This document shows positions 568 through 7,210 of a stretch of 7,210 nucleotides of DNA, one piece after another. Under the pieces are notes generated by a model, which saw nothing but the letters and a program-made list of their open reading frames with translations, was not told the origin of the DNA and did no database searches. Every line of letters starts with the position of its first letter. Position 1 is the first letter of the stretch. This DNA is from a virus (lineage: Duplodnaviria > Heunggongvirae > Uroviricota > Caudoviricetes), in the IMG/VR virus record IMGVR_UViG_2778261667_000004, positions 1-7,210 of that record, one strand, 5' to 3'. The position numbers and the translations under genes are program-made.

Positions 568-685
568 GTTGGCTGTCTCTTACTTATCAGCGATTTTTTA
601 TAATTGATCATATTTGTTAGTTATTCAAAATTGATTTCTAACATAAAACATTAATATCATCACTGATAACTGTTTGGAGGACATG
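568..685. promoter_or_regulatory. Divergent AT-rich control region between Ref-like gene and rightward operon; inverted repeat TGTTAG(615-620)-N17-CTAACA(638-643); candidate -35 TTGATT (631-636)
   Basis: Non-coding AT-rich stretch between two divergently oriented starts. Inverted repeat and TTGATTT/TCTAACATA words are shared with 4767-4788. The -10 is ambiguous (TAATAT 652-657 at 15 bp spacing, or TATCAT 655-660 at 18 bp). Confidence 0.3.
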
Positions 686-1461: not shown

Positions 1462-1775
1462 GCTGGCGGGGATGGGGAAGGGCAGAAATCATGATACTCC
1501 GCCAGTGCGCCGGGACTATGACGGTCGAGAGTATCGGGAAGCTGATCGGTCGTACCGGTGATGCCGTCAGGACTAAAGCGCGGGAGCTGAGAATCAGCAT
1601 GATTCTGAAAGGTGACTTTCACCAGTCAGCCAAATACCGGCAGAGCGATATAGAGCTGGCGCGGCAGCTTCATCAGTGTGGCGTTCCCCGCCGTGAGATC
1701 GCAGAAAAACTCGAAATGCCCCTGGGCATGATTAATCAGTACGTTTATTTCGAAAGGAGAGTGCATGAAGTCTGA
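1458..1775 (+). CDS. GcrA-like / tandem helix-turn-helix DNA-binding protein
   Basis: GTG start in a GTGA overlap with the upstream stop; AGAGGA 8 nt upstream. MSW...IGKLIGRTGDAVRTKARELRIS resembles the GcrA N-terminal HTH; second HTH-like segment DIELARQLHQCGVPRREIAEKLEMPLGMINQY. Confidence 0.65.
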   Translation: MSWRGWGRAEIMILRQCAGTMTVESIGKLIGRTGDAVRTKARELRISMILKGDFHQSAKYRQSDIELARQLHQCGVPRREIAEKLEMPLGMINQYVYFERRVHEV

Positions 1776-2202
1776 AGGTTTAACGCCAGAGCAACTGGCG
1801 GCGGAGAATGCGGCATTGCGTGAAGTAGTTGAACGCATGATAAATCAATTTGCAATGAGCGGTATTTCTCCAGAAGAGAAGTCAATCAATCCCGCAGCGT
1901 CGCTCATGTTTGATGCTAAATCAGCATTGTCTATGCCTGCAACTGACGCTTTCCTGGCTGAAGTTCGTGCTGAGGCACGCAACGAGGGGATTAACTATAC
2001 CGCAAGCCGTCTTGCTGCTGCTTTTAACCACGGATTTATCAATAAGTCTTTACGTGAAGTTTTCGACGTTACGCGCATGATTCTGTCAGCAAAAGAAGAG
2101 TTGGCTAATGAACCGCACCCGATTGATGGCCTGTCCGGTGAATATGCGGAGAAATCCCTGGAAGAATGGGCAGAACAGATTCGCAAAGGAGGTGATAAGT
2201 GA
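1765..2202 (+). CDS. Ea22-like protein, short paralog carrying only the coiled-coil plus PATDAFLAEVRA module
   Basis: AGGAGA SD then ATG 1765. Contains LAAENAALREVVERM and SMPATDAFLAEVRAEARNEGI, the same modules as in 2618-3322 and 6665-7210. Confidence 0.75.
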   Translation: MKSEGLTPEQLAAENAALREVVERMINQFAMSGISPEEKSINPAASLMFDAKSALSMPATDAFLAEVRAEARNEGINYTASRLAAAFNHGFINKSLREVFDVTRMILSAKEELANEPHPIDGLSGEYAEKSLEEWAEQIRKGGDK

Positions 2203-2609
2203 AGAAGATGATTTTTGTGGCGGCATTGGTGGCCATTACCCAACAGGCACAGGCTTCAGCAGTTATTGTGGCATCTACCGCCGCGACAACGGCTGCTGTA
2301 GCTGCTGCGAACTCTGCGAATATCGCAAACCAACAGGCACAGCGTGCTGCCAATGCATCAGCCGGTGTTCAACCAATTACCATTAAGGCCAGTAAGCAAA
2401 ATCTGGGGTTCATAACGTGCGGCAAGCGTTCTTATGAAGCTGTAGGCTCTCTGGGATGTACGGTATATGGCGATAGTGAGAGTAGAGAAATTCCATGGAA
2501 AACGTGGCCCGGATACGTTCTCGGCTCGAAGCTCCCGGCCAGCTATGAAGTAAACGCCGTATCGTTTGATCACTATAACGGCGTGGCAACTGTCTATTTT
2601 GCATATTGA
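2199..2609 (+). CDS. Secreted/periplasmic protein of unknown function (signal peptide, Ala/Thr/Asn-rich linker, two-Cys C-terminal domain)
   Basis: AGGAGGT SD then GTG 2199 in a GTGA overlap. N-terminus MKKMIFVAALVAITQQAQA|SAV is a textbook Sec signal with AxA cleavage site. Low-complexity linker, then globular C-terminus with Cys-x13-Cys. No lipobox. Confidence 0.7.
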   Translation: MKKMIFVAALVAITQQAQASAVIVASTAATTAAVAAANSANIANQQAQRAANASAGVQPITIKASKQNLGFITCGKRSYEAVGSLGCTVYGDSESREIPWKTWPGYVLGSKLPASYEVNAVSFDHYNGVATVYFAY

Positions 2610-2617
2610 GGCTCCGC

Positions 2618-3322
2618 ATGAAATTCTCCAAATTTTCTGAGTTGGTGAATCGTATTTTGTCCAACAACCACAGCCATCATAGCGATATGGATGTGACGAT
2701 CGTTGTTCATTCGCCTGGCAGCATTGGTTCAACACCCTCAGTTGAGGTTCAGTCAATTCACGCTGGTTTTGATTGGGATTCCGGGAAAGTGCTGATTTTC
2801 CCAGCACAGCCACTGACCACGCTAACACCAGAACAGATTACTGATATTACTGATAGTGTGCGCAAAGGTCAGTCCTGGCACGCATATCAGGAATACAAGA
2901 AGCATAAAGAGCAGTTGGAAAAATTGTCGATTGAACTTGATGCCGCAAAACAGCGCGTTGCAGAGCTGGAGAGCAATCGAGCGGCGCTGGCGGCGGAGAA
3001 TGCAGGGCTAAAGGCGATATGTGATGACCGTCGCAGGCTCATCATGAATGGGGTGCAGATGGGTTATATCAAGGTGCCAACAGCGGAAACAGATCCAGAC
3101 CTTGAGACAATACGTATTGCTATATCACCACAAAAGCCCATTCCAGCCACCGATGCTTTCTTGGCTGAAGTGCGGGCGGAGGCGTTTAACGACCTTTGCG
3201 CGGCGTTTGTCATGGACGCGAGGGGAGTAGGACTGGATGATGACGAGCTAGTGACGCTTAAAGATGCGACAGGTGCGCTGCTGCATTGTGCAGAACAGCT
3301 TAGGGAAGGGGGCAGTCAGTGA
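2618..3322 (+). CDS. Ea22-like protein (Ead/Ea22 family), full-length paralog with distinct N-terminal domain
   Basis: GAGG SD then ATG 2618 (track TTG 2606 would overlap the upstream stop). Coiled-coil NRAALAAENAGLKAICDD and PIPATDAFLAEVRAEAFNDL shared with the other two Ea22-like genes; unique N-terminal domain (DVTIVVHSPGSIGSTPSVEVQSIHAGFDWDSGKVLIFP). Confidence 0.8.
   Translation: MKFSKFSELVNRILSNNHSHHSDMDVTIVVHSPGSIGSTPSVEVQSIHAGFDWDSGKVLIFPAQPLTTLTPEQITDITDSVRKGQSWHAYQEYKKHKEQLEKLSIELDAAKQRVAELESNRAALAAENAGLKAICDDRRRLIMNGVQMGYIKVPTAETDPDLETIRIAISPQKPIPATDAFLAEVRAEAFNDLCAAFVMDARGVGLDDDELVTLKDATGALLHCAEQLREGGSQ
2981..3002 (+). repeat. 22-bp direct repeat (GCGGCGCTGGCGGCGGAGAATG), identical copy at 6968-6989, 16-bp core also at 1797-1815
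   Basis: Exact string match read from the sequence; encodes the AALAAEN coiled-coil segment of the Ea22-like paralogs. Confidence 0.85.
3143..3180 (+). repeat. About 38-bp near-identical direct repeat (PATDAFLAEVRA-coding), partner at 7118-7156, more diverged copy at 1936-1977
   Basis: CCAGCCACCGATGCTTTCTTGGCTGAAGTGCGGGCGGA versus CCAGCCACCGATGCTTTTCTGGCTGAAGTACGGGCGCA; a handful of mismatches by eye. Confidence 0.8.
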
Positions 3323-3618
3323 ATATCGACACCACGATAACGATCGACACGGCTCTCAACACAGGTTTGGCCTTGCTCGGTTGGGTTTACATCATGTTCA
3401 GTGCAGTACGGTGGGTGAAATCTGTTTTTCTAAAGCAGTGGGATAAACTCCGCGAAAAATCACGCCGCCAACAGGCCGTAGATGAATTTTGCGATGCATT
3501 TTCTTTGGAATGCATGGAGCCAGGTAGCACCATCCGCATCGCAACGAAGGAGGACTTGATAATTATGATGTATCGACAGGAGAAGGCAAATGACAGAACA
3601 GACGATGACAAATCGTGA
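3319..3618 (+). CDS. Small single-pass membrane protein, unknown function
   Basis: GTG start inside the junction GGGGGCAGTCAGTGA (3308-3322), overlapping the upstream stop. One predicted TM segment (TALNTGLALLGWVYIMFSAV). Confidence 0.5.
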   Translation: MNIDTTITIDTALNTGLALLGWVYIMFSAVRWVKSVFLKQWDKLREKSRRQQAVDEFCDAFSLECMEPGSTIRIATKEDLIIMMYRQEKANDRTDDDKS

Positions 3619-4041: not shown

Positions 4042-4730
4042 CCCAGGCGCTGCATGAAGTGAATTTATATAGCCGTATTGATGGTTCAGGCTACAGAAAC
4101 ATATGGGTTGTTGGTGATTTGCACGGTTGCTACACCCTGCTTATGAATAAACTCCATCGTGTGGATTTTGACCCGACACAGGATTTACTGATATCGGTTG
4201 GCGACCTTATCGATCGCGGCACAGAAAATGTTGAATGCCTGGAGCTATTGCAGATGCCCTGGTTTCGGTCGGTTATGGGAAACCACGAGCGATTAATGAT
4301 CGATGCGTTAAGTCCCTCTGGCAACGTGAATAACTGGCTAATGAATGGCGGTCAGTGGTTCTTTATGCTGGATAGTGATAAGGAAGTTTTAGCCGGGGCG
4401 CTGGTGGAGCTGGTTAGACGACTGCCTTATATCATAGAGCTGAACACAGGGCAGGAGACTATTGTCATTGCTCATGCTGACTATCCGGATAGAGAGTATC
4501 AGTTTGGCAAGGATGTGTCGCTTTTCAATGTCATCTGGTCGCGAGACCGTGTTAGTGACTCGATAGATGGCATCGGTGAAGAAATCACAGGCGCAGATCG
4601 CTTTATCTTTGGACACACACCGGTACGAAGACCAAAAGCATTCTGGAATCAGCACTACATAGACACAGGCGCGGTTTTTTGCGGAAATCTGACGCTAATA
4701 CAGGTGAAGGGAGGGCAGCTTAAAGTCTGA
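4038..4730 (+). CDS. PPP-family Ser/Thr protein phosphatase, PrpA/PrpB / lambda-phosphatase (ApaH-related) type
   Basis: Canonical metallophosphoesterase motifs in order: GDLHGC (GDxHG), GDLIDRG (GDxxDRG), GNHE, plus later His residues. Length and layout resemble E. coli PrpA as I recall it. GGAGAAGG SD before ATG 4038; track TTG 4008 rejected. Confidence 0.92.
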
Positions 4731-5824: not shown

Positions 5825-5840
5825 TGGAGTGGATCAAAAA

Positions 5841-6419
5841 ATGAAAGAACGCGGGATGATTTTTAACGATGAAATGGTCCGGGCAATTCTTGGCGGGAAT
5901 AAAACACAGACTCGCAGGATTGTTGAAGAAAAATTCTATGGACGGGCAGTGGCCGCAGAGTTGCTTGCCAAGCATTGTCCATATGGTCAACCGGGCGATC
6001 GTATTTGGGTTCGCGAAACCTACCGGGTACATGGCAAAGCGACGGACGTCGCAACGCTGGTTTATCGCGCAAGCGTGCGTAACTCCTGGACAGAACAAAC
6101 GCACCGGGTTCCGGTCGAGGTTTGTAATAAACCAGTATCAGAAAAGTGGACGCCATCAATTCACATGCCGCGCTGGGCATCGCGCATTTTGCTGGAAATT
6201 ACCGACGTGCGTGTGGAACGGCTGCATGACATGAGCGAGGCAGATGCTAAAGCAGAAGGCGCAACTCCGGCGACGTACAAGATTACGCCACCTGAAGCTG
6301 TTTATCGCGTTGGTTTTGGTGATATCTGGCGCAGTATTTACGGGCAGGATAACTGGCTATCTAACCCGTTGGTATGGGTAATAGAGTTTAAGCGTATTCA
6401 GGGGGCAACCAGTGAGTGA
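5841..6419 (+). CDS. ASCH-domain (PUA-like fold) protein
   Basis: MIFNDEMVRAILGGNKTQTRR matches the ASCH signature (compare E. coli YqfB DDILAGRKTITIR), followed by GDRIWVRETYRV and C-terminal VWVIEFKRI (YqfB ends FYVIEFK). Start ambiguous: GTG 5829, ATG 5841 or ATG 5856. Confidence 0.75.
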   Translation: MKERGMIFNDEMVRAILGGNKTQTRRIVEEKFYGRAVAAELLAKHCPYGQPGDRIWVRETYRVHGKATDVATLVYRASVRNSWTEQTHRVPVEVCNKPVSEKWTPSIHMPRWASRILLEITDVRVERLHDMSEADAKAEGATPATYKITPPEAVYRVGFGDIWRSIYGQDNWLSNPLVWVIEFKRIQGATSE

Positions 6420-6678
6420 GTCAAAATGCCAAATTAATGGCAACAAGATAGAACCGTGCGCGGCGTTGACGCAATCCCTGGAGCATGACGCTGAATACAC
6501 GACGCGAAAAGGTCTGCTGAAATACAAAATCTATAACCATGCATTAATTCATTCACAAGACCTGATCATGCTGCGGTCTGGTGAATTTTCTAAATCACCG
6601 ATTCGAGTTTCATTTTGCCCGTTCTGTGGTGAAAGTCTGAAAACGTGGGAAGCGGAGGCAACCAGTGAGCAAAATTAA
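6412..6678 (+). CDS. Small Cys-containing protein (possible zinc ribbon), unknown function
   Basis: GTG 6412 inside junction GGGGGCAACCAGTGAGTGA, overlapping the ASCH stop. Cys-x9-Cys near N-terminus and CPFC near C-terminus. Confidence 0.5.
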   Translation: MSESKCQINGNKIEPCAALTQSLEHDAEYTTRKGLLKYKIYNHALIHSQDLIMLRSGEFSKSPIRVSFCPFCGESLKTWEAEATSEQN

Positions 6679-7210
6679 CTATCAAGAACTGCGCGAGGCG
6701 GCGGAACAGGCAACGCAAGATGAATGGGTAGCATATATTTTGCCGGGTCATAACGGCATTTATCCTGCGCGCACGTCTGAGGGTAGGCATTGCGGATACT
6801 TTATTGACTGGCCTGGCATTGATGGACAAAGGAATGCTGGTGCTAATGCCCGTTATATCGCGGCTATCCCACCAAAAGTTGCGCTGGCACTCCTGGGCGA
6901 AATTAAGCGCTTGGAAGACACAAATATTGATGCTATGTGCCGAATTGCAGAACTGGAGGCCTGTCGCGCGGCGCTGGCGGCGGAGAATGAGCTGGCTCGT
7001 AAAGCAGTTCAGGCATTCTGCGATGTTGTTGGCGACAACACCGAGGTTATCGCTGAGGAGATTGGGAGAGATGGTGTTCTGGCTATTTTGGAGGCCATGA
7101 AGGCAACAGGAAATATGCCAGCCACCGATGCTTTTCTGGCTGAAGTACGGGCGCAGGGGGTGGATGCTGCTATAGAAGCTGCAAAAAATCTGGTGGTCCA
7201 AGAATATGAG
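6665..7210 (+). CDS. Ea22-like protein (Ead/Ea22 family), N-terminal part; continues beyond window end
   Basis: Open frame from GTG 6665 to the window end with no stop (absent from ORF track). GGAGG 8 nt upstream. Translation VSKINYQELREAAEQATQDEWVAYILPGHNGIYPARTSEGRHCGYFIDWPG...ACRAALAAENELARKAVQAFCD...NMPATDAFLAEVRAQGVDAAIEAAKN is typical of the family as I recall it. Confidence 0.8.
   Translation, partial: MSKINYQELREAAEQATQDEWVAYILPGHNGIYPARTSEGRHCGYFIDWPGIDGQRNAGANARYIAAIPPKVALALLGEIKRLEDTNIDAMCRIAELEACRAALAAENELARKAVQAFCDVVGDNTEVIAEEIGRDGVLAILEAMKATGNMPATDAFLAEVRAQGVDAAIEAAKNLVVQEYE
6968..6989 (+). repeat. 22-bp direct repeat, partner of 2981-3002
   Basis: Exact string match read from the sequence. 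Confidence 0.85.
7118..7156 (+). repeat. Near-identical direct repeat, partner of 3143-3180
   Basis: See partner entry. Confidence 0.8.

Follow-up and report, generated by a model that had tools for sequence, protein, structure and literature searches.

By its sequence, the gene at positions 2199 to 2609 of the window (the whole 7,210-nucleotide stretch of DNA analysed, which is the entire contig PTSF01000043.1 of GCA_002965845.1) is a genuine and fairly ordinary accessory gene, and its product is very probably a genuine exported phage protein whose function is predicted only. What the gene makes is a small protein that, as predicted from its signal peptide, is almost certainly placed between the two bacterial membranes. 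The best overall explanation, to which we assign a probability of about 0.35, is that this protein is a phage effector that would be expressed with early genes and act on a host-generic target in the envelope, with exclusion as its most plausible effect. Superinfection exclusion as the specific role is put forward tentatively.

The gene and its probably exported product

The gene and the parts of its product lie in the window as follows:

2186..2192, + strand: ribosome-binding site AAGGAGG, 6 nt before the GTG start (from sequence)
2199..2609, + strand: coding sequence of the 136-aa exported protein, phrog_8805 family (ORF call, GTG start)
2199..2255, + strand: signal peptide MKKMIFVAALVAITQQAQA, aa 1-19, with a predicted SPase I cut after AQA (hydrophobicity scans)
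2256..2363, + strand: Ala/Thr/Asn/Gln-rich segment, aa 20-55, 44% Ala, predicted helical (composition, AF2)
2364..2606, + strand: C-terminal domain, aa 56-136 (AF2 model mc2586df56d07, alignment, dN/dS)
2418..2420, + strand: Cys74 codon, first of the invariant pair (sequence, alignment)
2457..2459, + strand: Cys87 codon, second of the invariant pair and putative disulfide partner (sequence, alignment)

The 136-aa ORF is present as first described, and its conserved homologues, together with purifying selection on the C-terminal domain, mark it as something other than a chance ORF. Each end of the gene shares 4 nt with the adjoining one: the GTG start runs into the upstream stop (GTGA), and the stop runs into TTG 2606, the first possible start of the downstream ORF, which an independent gene call begins at ATG 2618. 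Given these overlaps, the gene is predicted to be translationally coupled to its neighbours. Three alternative-frame ORFs (2108-2386 on the + strand, 2105-2353 and 2358-2828 on the - strand) were set aside as by-products of the GCN-rich segment.

The initial annotation had credited this gene with a clear signal peptide ending in an AxA site, and had called it the only such gene of the array. Both statements hold. The N-terminus, MKKMIFVAALVAITQQAQA followed by S, combines a positive n-region, a hydrophobic core of 10-11 residues and Ala at -3 and -1. It divides into n, h and c regions of MKK, MIFVAALVAI(T) and QQAQA before the S, in line with Sec/SPase I sequence criteria, and the core has a KD of 2.8-3.1 (best 10-residue Kyte-Doolittle mean 3.13). 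A signal-peptide-like N-terminus is found in 33/33 aligned homologues despite their diverged sequence, and the GenBank annotators of phage KLB16 also recorded one. Among the 15 called genes of the window, this is the sole gene with a canonical cleavable signal peptide. Transmembrane-like segments occur in the 51-aa ORF at 683-838 and in the DUF4752 protein (3319-3618).

A lipobox, [LVI][ASTVI][GAS]C, was not found at the end of the signal peptide, the first Cys being residue 74, and this rules out a lipoprotein of the Llp, Cor or Bor type. The precursor would be a Sec substrate, cut after AQA19. The envelope, which had been suggested as the place of action, is supported as likely.

The C-terminal domain is the best-defined part of the protein. 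The initial annotation had noted a domain of about 80 aa with two Cys positioned for a disulfide; residues 56-136 indeed hold exactly two Cys, C74 and C87, and both are invariant in the 33-sequence alignment. The full set of invariant residues in these 33 sequences is G70, T73, C74, S84, C87, P104, Y106, Y116, D124, T131, Y133, F134 and Y136. Pairwise dN/dS in the domain is 0.05-0.5, and the domain is under purifying selection. Because the Cys pair is invariant and the predicted location periplasmic, a C74-C87 disulfide is expected; made by DsbA, it would staple the domain in the periplasm.

Structure prediction, one of the checks proposed at the outset, modelled this domain confidently and the full-length protein poorly. 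Alone, residues 56-136 gave a small alpha/beta fold with a pLDDT of 88.7 and a pTM of 0.75, whereas the full-length AF2 model reached a pLDDT of 65.9 at the same alignment depth. The modelled order is beta1-beta2-beta3-beta4-alpha-beta5-beta6, with the two Cys at the end of beta1 and in beta3. The model has no convincing structural neighbour, a BFVD search returning only a member of the protein's own family. An outer-membrane-protein-like C-terminal beta-signal (YF.Y at the C-terminus) was considered and dropped, both for the extra residues that follow the motif in homologues P0063, P0064, P0076 and P0077 and for the place of the motif in the domain model, where it forms a core strand.

Between signal peptide and domain lies a segment initially described as a 35-aa Ala/Thr/Asn/Gln-rich linker. 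The low-complexity segment is there, at 36 aa, but the word 'linker' fits poorly: after the AQA19 cut nothing would be left on its N-terminal side, so the term is a misnomer unless the protein is anchored. Residues 20-55 comprise 16 Ala, 4 Ser, 4 Asn, 3 Thr, 3 Val, 3 Gln, 2 Ile and 1 Arg. Hydrophobicity is borderline in the first half of the segment; the second half, which has a modest hydrophobic moment, is polar. In the main subfamily 19/36 of these positions are invariant, and the distant clusters P0074, P0076, P0077, P0081 and P0070 retain an Ala-rich stretch with an (A/I)NAS-like motif at its end; in the KW1E branch this is replaced by a shorter, polar stretch. The dN/dS of the segment is noisy, at 0.07-0.98 from few sites. 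A weak match to the Pfam Alanine_zipper model (E 0.29, in 1/32 members) was not taken as evidence. We treat the segment as a conserved, predicted helical module, with oligomerisation, membrane association or service as a stalk as candidate roles.

The segment also bears on the form of the mature protein. A membrane-associated form is possible, since residues 19-37 reach a KD19 of 1.65, borderline for a membrane helix. The signal peptide might stay uncleaved, or the Ala/Val/Thr-rich segment might be re-inserted, leaving the protein attached to the inner membrane, where the helix would form a stalk presenting the C-terminal domain. Such a protein would resemble a signal-anchor or SAR-type protein, and the 'linker' would then have something to link. 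AF2 draws residues 2-55 as one continuous helix (pLDDT about 67-74), and most family members carry a hydrophobic [AV]-V-[IV] triplet right after the AXA site. Nonetheless, the hydrophobic core is just 10-11 residues long and leads into a textbook AQA site, the KW1E branch turns polar shortly past the cleavage site and lacks a second hydrophobic segment, and the helix comes from a full-length model of low confidence (pLDDT 65.9). SAR proteins such as T4 RI and the N-terminus of P1 Lyz have a weakly hydrophobic transmembrane domain, rich in Gly, Ala, Ser and Thr, without a cleavage site; here the Ala/Thr/Ser/Val-rich segment follows a signal peptide, with the AXA site between the two. We consider a tethered form unlikely. 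The question is one of form, and any of the functions proposed below would go with either answer.

A narrow family on an in-operon cassette

The protein was initially said to belong to no recognisable family. This is true of the curated libraries, as Pfam, NCBIfam, PADLOC and a profile search of PDB sequences gave no match, but PHROGs v4 places the protein, over its full length, in phrog_8805 (E 1.4e-83, 279 bits, residues 1-136 on positions 1-136 of the 136-position profile), a family annotated there without function. Literature searches by accession, PHROG id and keywords found no study of it. A word-indexed search of 5.8 billion proteins returned 56 relatives in Escherichia, Salmonella, Shigella and Citrobacter, most of them 80-96% identical. 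With the homologue of phage KW1E_UTAR as the query, a further search added 17 more distant relatives, one of them from Rahnella. An exhaustive HMM search with the 33-sequence profile against 1.84 billion representatives (at 50% identity) gave 17 hits and about nine true clusters, all of stand-alone proteins of 92-134 aa. Large multi-repeat hits (P0078, P0079, P0082 and P0084, of which P0078 and P0084 were directly inspected) were judged spurious, with matches limited to a short GF[IV].CG-type motif or a low-complexity stretch. In tblastn against 50,697 phage records, P1 records included, the five records returned were all of the protein's own family. On these searches, phrog_8805 is a very small, phage-restricted family. 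Frameshifted or truncated copies occur (P0050, P0051, P0055 and P0081), and the gene is therefore dispensable in many prophages.

Narrow as it is, the family is spread over several kinds of element. The gene is carried by 64/5426 complete E. coli genomes, with 47 chromosomal copies and 19 on plasmids of about 85-97 kb. All 66 PLSDB matches (66/66) are non-mobilizable plasmids of 85-110 kb, the size of phage-plasmids. The E. coli carriers include the pathogenic lineages O111 and O45. IMG/VR holds 59 contigs with the gene. A one-genome-per-species collection gave a single match, 93% identical, on a 3.2-kb contig of a MAG labelled Actinomycetes, a label that almost certainly reflects mis-binning.

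Marker genes were used to class 60 loci, these being the 59 from IMG/VR and the MAG contig. About 14 are D6-like, about 13 lambdoid (YfdQ/YfdR...exo), about 12 P1-like (with a HOT/phd-doc neighbourhood and the P0074 subtype) and about nine Mu-like (DUF3164, GemA, Mor); the other 12 include the virulent Vequintavirinae phage Av-05. Homologues of at least 90% aa identity sit on D6-like, Mu-like and lambdoid elements, close copies also on P1-like phage-plasmids, and more distant copies in the virulent phages Av-05, KW1E_UTAR and KLB16. The homology search called for in the initial annotation thus found conservation well outside the element in which the gene was noticed.

The genes and sites around it in the window are:

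631..660, + strand: promoter-like site TTGATT-18-TATCAT, the sole one on this strand (consensus match, ref/operon intergenic region)
1765..2202, + strand: upstream Ea22-like gene, 145 aa (PHROGs, RefSeq name of a near-identical neighbour)
1933..1985, + strand: conserved Ea22 motif PATDAFLAEVRAEA, left mosaic joint of the cassette (direct repeat of 3140-3192)
2618..3322, + strand: downstream Ea22-like gene, 234 aa from the ATG at 2618 (PHROGs, gene call)
3140..3192, + strand: second copy of the Ea22 motif, 75% identical to 1933-1985 (repeat comparison)

The window is part of a D6-like phage-plasmid and is collinear with D6 itself, an Escherichia phage-plasmid of P1 type; the exported-protein gene stands in an operon whose genes all run in one direction. 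The common order runs from a Ref-like nuclease through DUF4406, an HTH protein, the Ea22-like genes, DUF4752 and a Ppp/NinI-type phosphatase to DUF968 (PdcB-like). D6 lacks the exported-protein gene, and its orf91 and orf92 are adjacent. Relative to D6, the gene is, by this comparison, an inserted cassette.

The description of the gene as embedded between Ea22-like genes was borne out. RefSeq names a near-identical neighbour of the upstream gene 'ead/Ea22-like family protein', and both flanking genes share the PATDAFLAEVRAEA motif and match PHROGs 614/368/492; neither reaches Pfam PF13935. The arrangement recurs among the 59 IMG/VR loci, with an Ea22-like gene directly upstream in 29 and one with a phrog_6026 N-terminal domain directly downstream in 35. 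That N-terminal domain of the downstream gene is linked to the exported-protein gene in both a lambdoid prophage (L007) and the virulent Av-05, and the 3′ part of the upstream gene, from 1933, travels with it.

Nucleotide similarity to other elements covers window positions 1936-2628 in a Mu-like prophage (L005), 1936-3012 in the lambdoid prophage L007, 2167-3172 in a D6-like plasmid (L006) and 2186-2923 in Av-05, there at 76% identity. The borders of similarity coincide with direct repeats between the two flanking Ea22-like paralogues (1933-1985/3140-3192, 1795-1811/2987-3003 and 2167-2203/3287-3323). The cassette appears to move by recombination in conserved Ea22-like motifs, and the Ea22-flanked placement probably reflects homologous recombination there. 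The frequent linkage might also reflect a functional tie to these cytoplasmic proteins.

Several features of the setting bear on the view that the gene is a moron. Consistent with that view, it stands between genes that are adjacent in the related phage D6 (orf91 and orf92). The other two marks of a moron, its own promoter and terminator and a base composition unlike the flanks, are both missing (2/3). A consensus scan of the + strand found no promoter-like site between 660 and the gene, nor a terminator-like site flanking it, the nearest being a weak 5-bp stem at 2002-2015 inside the upstream ORF. The gene has a GC content of 0.49-0.52, against 0.45-0.54 for its flanks. The site at 631..660 is instead a candidate promoter for the whole operon containing the gene, and both D6 and a D6-like plasmid conserve the ref/operon intergenic region that includes this site. 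The insertion relative to D6 thus speaks for the term 'moron', but the 4-nt overlaps, the early-region placement elsewhere and the copies in virulent phages do not. Because the gene has no flanking promoter or terminator and the GC of its flanks, we read it as an accessory cassette within an operon rather than an autonomous unit of lysogenic conversion.

Its placement in other elements is also in early or accessory regions. Mu-like elements carry the gene in their semi-essential early region, directly ahead of gemA and next to GemA/Mor, a position seen both for a copy with 94% nucleotide identity and for a homologue 43% identical to the KW1E-type query. In lambdoid prophages it lies in the YfdQ/YfdR...exo region. 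In 45-kb virulent siphoviruses (KW1E_UTAR, KLB16 and two metagenomic relatives) it is syntenic, with a gene for a small two-TM protein and the terminase genes downstream of it, and in 3/4 of these phages it directly follows a Dcm-type methylase.

Possible roles at the host envelope

In the reading we favour, the protein would be produced in lytic development, alongside the products of early or accessory genes, rather than as an autonomous lysogen-expressed moron, a timing read from gene position only. Acting alone, it could bind an envelope or periplasmic component common to Enterobacterales, independently of the carrier's own receptor. Binding might then shield the cell, whether infected or induced, and the likeliest way would be to stop a superinfecting phage at a periplasmic step of its entry. 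Three aspects of the distribution shape this proposal. Retention of the gene by virulent phages means that whatever benefit it brings cannot rest on lysogeny. The contexts have no conserved partner gene in common, and the protein therefore probably acts alone on a host component. Finally, receptor masking, one of the activities raised in the initial annotation, is disfavoured because copies at least 90% identical in aa sequence occur on phages with unrelated tails and adsorption machinery, and because the gene was never beside tail-fibre genes in the loci inspected; the same facts favour a host-generic target.

The protein could instead be an effector of host takeover or lysis timing. Its target could be a host cell-wall or division enzyme (a PBP, an LD-transpeptidase, a lytic transglycosylase or a divisome periplasmic domain), an envelope-stress sensor or the phage lysis machinery. 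In Mu-like elements the gene keeps company with the early host-takeover genes kil, gemA and mor, D6 has an Icd-like gene nearby, and virulent phages, which also carry it, gain from host remodelling. The next gene encodes a small membrane protein in the 45-kb siphoviruses and in a Mu-like prophage. These small downstream membrane proteins, however, bear no holin or spanin annotation in PHROGs, and no recognisable lysis cassette adjoins the gene; in the Mu-like prophage L005 the holin and endolysin genes lie about 2 kb further downstream. The protein also lacks similarity to T4 RI or other antiholins. Takeover or lysis timing is an improbable role.

A broader proposal, which we hold to be quite unlikely, is that the modelled C-terminal domain represents a novel fold family among the periplasmic effectors of phages, one common to virulent and temperate phages whose tails are unrelated, and directed at a conserved enterobacterial envelope target, with the Ala-rich helix serving oligomerisation or membrane association. 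If this is true, the family would embody an undescribed mechanism of receptor-independent superinfection exclusion, envelope takeover or counter-defence.

Counter-defence as such seems a poor prospect. The protein could oppose periplasmic or inner-membrane defences of the host or of a resident prophage, such as entry blockers, Sie-type proteins or DNA-entry gatekeepers. Like this cassette, anti-defence genes are commonly found in early accessory regions and spread across unrelated phages, and periplasm-located defences against DNA entry exist, the HXS system being a reported example (PMC13128918). Against this, a protein made after genome entry cannot rescue its own phage's entry and could serve only later steps or co-infecting kin. 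PADLOC matched no defence or anti-defence model to the exported protein and no defence-protein model to nine neighbouring gene products, and linkage to known anti-defence genes was not seen.

An equally poor prospect is lysogenic conversion, in which the prophage-expressed protein would alter the surface through receptor masking, serum resistance or animal-host interaction: the insertion relative to D6, the predicted export and the O111 and O45 carriers are in keeping with it, but the gene has no promoter or terminator of its own, is coupled in translation, matches its flanks in GC, lies unlinked to receptor-binding genes and has virulent-phage homologues that cannot act through lysogeny. The P1 C1 operator consensus, at up to 3 mismatches, has no match in the window or the D6 region; a D6-like lysogen may express the gene, since a P1-type C1 operator was not found near the operon promoter. 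Early regions are repressed in lysogens of Mu and lambda, and the Mu-like and lambdoid placements are of this kind.

To our knowledge, few small exported phage proteins have been studied. Several of those that have, namely T4 Sp and Imm, T5 Llp, Cor and P1 Sim, revealed ways in which phages govern traffic across the envelope. Two points lift the present protein a little above the average hypothetical protein: its lack of a confident structural neighbour, and its recent wide spread across element types and virulent phages. A narrow family that was recently exchanged among Mu-like, P1/D6-like and lambdoid elements, and that virulent phages retain, argues for a benefit independent of phage type. 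Should that benefit come from action on a host-generic target, whether for exclusion or for envelope takeover, the protein would offer a compact probe (about 115 aa when mature) for that target, with a possible bearing on the design of phage-therapy cocktails in E. coli, Salmonella and Klebsiella. Should the protein have no measurable effect, it would be one more hypothetical accessory gene.

Comparison with known exported proteins

The DUF1471/YhcN family (PF07338; BhsA, YdgH, SrfN, YjfN) was compared by profile. None of 32 members of the present family matched PF07338 up to E 10, and hhalign against seven K-12 DUF1471 paralogues gave a probability of 5% over 19 aligned columns, which rules out membership at the HMM and profile-profile level. 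Compared with DUF1471, the C-terminal domain as modelled has a different strand count and an extra hairpin that would bear the putative disulfide.

Known phage exclusion proteins (T4 Sp/Imm, T5 Llp, P1 Sim, Cor and P22 SieA) showed no sequence similarity to the protein in tblastn or in PHROGs, where phrog_8805 was the one match, P1 being the phage whose presence in the 50,697-record collection was confirmed. P1 Sim, a processed, signal-peptide-bearing protein of a P1-type phage-plasmid, blocks superinfection after adsorption. It is much larger than the exported protein and is encoded at a different locus; D6 has a simB-like gene near the region collinear with the window, and tblastn with the exported protein returned no P1 record, though P1 is in the collection.

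T5 Llp and Cor of phi80, T1 and N15 are likewise small, phage-encoded and exported, and their site of action is the envelope, where the present protein too would probably act. Llp has a disulfide that matters for its function. Llp and Cor are lipoproteins with a lipobox Cys, whereas the exported protein has no Cys before residue 74, and tblastn against the 50,697 phage records revealed no sequence similarity to either. Their genes adjoin receptor-binding genes and track FhuA specificity; the exported-protein gene, in contrast, occupies early regions of phages with unrelated tails.

The closest parallel in logic is T4 Spackle (Sp, gp61.3). Spackle is a periplasmic protein of about 100 aa with a cleavable signal peptide, produced early by a virulent phage, which inhibits the tail lysozyme gp5 and, acting alone, excludes superinfecting phage at a periplasmic step (PMC7650644). 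The exported protein is like it in small size and in its signal peptide, and the exclusion proposed here would follow the logic of Spackle rather than the receptor masking of Llp and Cor.

The exported-protein gene and its neighbours

The gene downstream of the exported-protein gene (2199-2609, + strand) begins with a domain that recurs beside homologues of the exported-protein gene in other phages.

2618-2970: phrog_6026 N-terminal domain of the downstream gene (2618-3322, + strand), cytoplasmic

A lambdoid prophage (L007) and the virulent phage Av-05 also show linkage of this domain to the exported-protein gene. Between the window and Av-05, the domain is 56% identical in amino acid sequence, and the two genes taken jointly show 76% nucleotide identity. 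The exported-protein gene and the phrog_6026 N-domain gene may be a two-gene module. In 45-kb virulent siphoviruses, the gene immediately 3′ of the homologue has a product of 62-71 aa that contains two hydrophobic segments, and a Mu-like prophage carries an 83-aa product at the downstream position.

Small genes downstream of homologues (coordinates within each locus)
4249-4455: siphovirus locus L002
3248-3463: siphovirus locus L003
1145-1348: siphovirus locus L014
3265-3453: siphovirus locus L015
6511-6762: Mu-like prophage L005; N-terminal transmembrane segment, phrog_8391

A 93% identical copy of the exported-protein gene lies on a 3228-bp contig labelled 'MAG: Actinomycetes bacterium' (L017, JAFAFN010000164.1). 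This copy of an enterobacterial phage gene is flanked by Ea22-like genes, and the contig is almost certainly mis-binned. In some genomes, the homologous proteins (P0050, P0051, P0055 and P0081) carry a frameshift or an internal deletion, which indicates that the gene is decaying in some prophages.

Ea22-like repeats and mosaic borders

The Ea22-like paralogues, the third of which starts at 6665, share direct repeats.

1933-1985 and 3140-3192: direct repeat
1795-1811 and 2987-3003: direct repeat
2167-2203 and 3287-3323: direct repeat
7118-7164: further Ea22-like repeat site

Mosaic borders that the window has in common with Mu-like, lambdoid, D6-like and Av-05 sequences coincide with the positions of these direct repeats. 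Ea22-like motifs seem to serve as recombination joints for accessory cassettes.

Operon start and gene starts

683-838: strongly hydrophobic ORF, 51 aa, first in the operon (KD19 2.30)

This ORF directly follows the sole promoter-like site (631-660); phage D6 (orf88) and a D6-like plasmid have both kept it. The intergenic region between ref and the operon (568-682) is likewise kept across D6-like elements. It contains, by eye, two copies of AATTGAT spaced 27 nt apart, and the P1 C1 operator consensus found no match in it at up to three mismatches. For several genes of the window, mechanically chosen first-start ORFs and public gene calls disagree on the start (4008 versus 4038, 811 versus 838, 2606 versus 2618, and 5829 versus 5841); the shorter ATG/GTG starts better match the 4-nt-overlap pattern of the operon.

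A further segment absent from D6

5841-6419: ORF, 192 aa

The product of this ORF had no match in Pfam or NCBIfam. The ORF lies inside a segment (5827-6433) that is another accessory insertion: phage D6 has no counterpart to it, and the match to D6 picks up again on either side.
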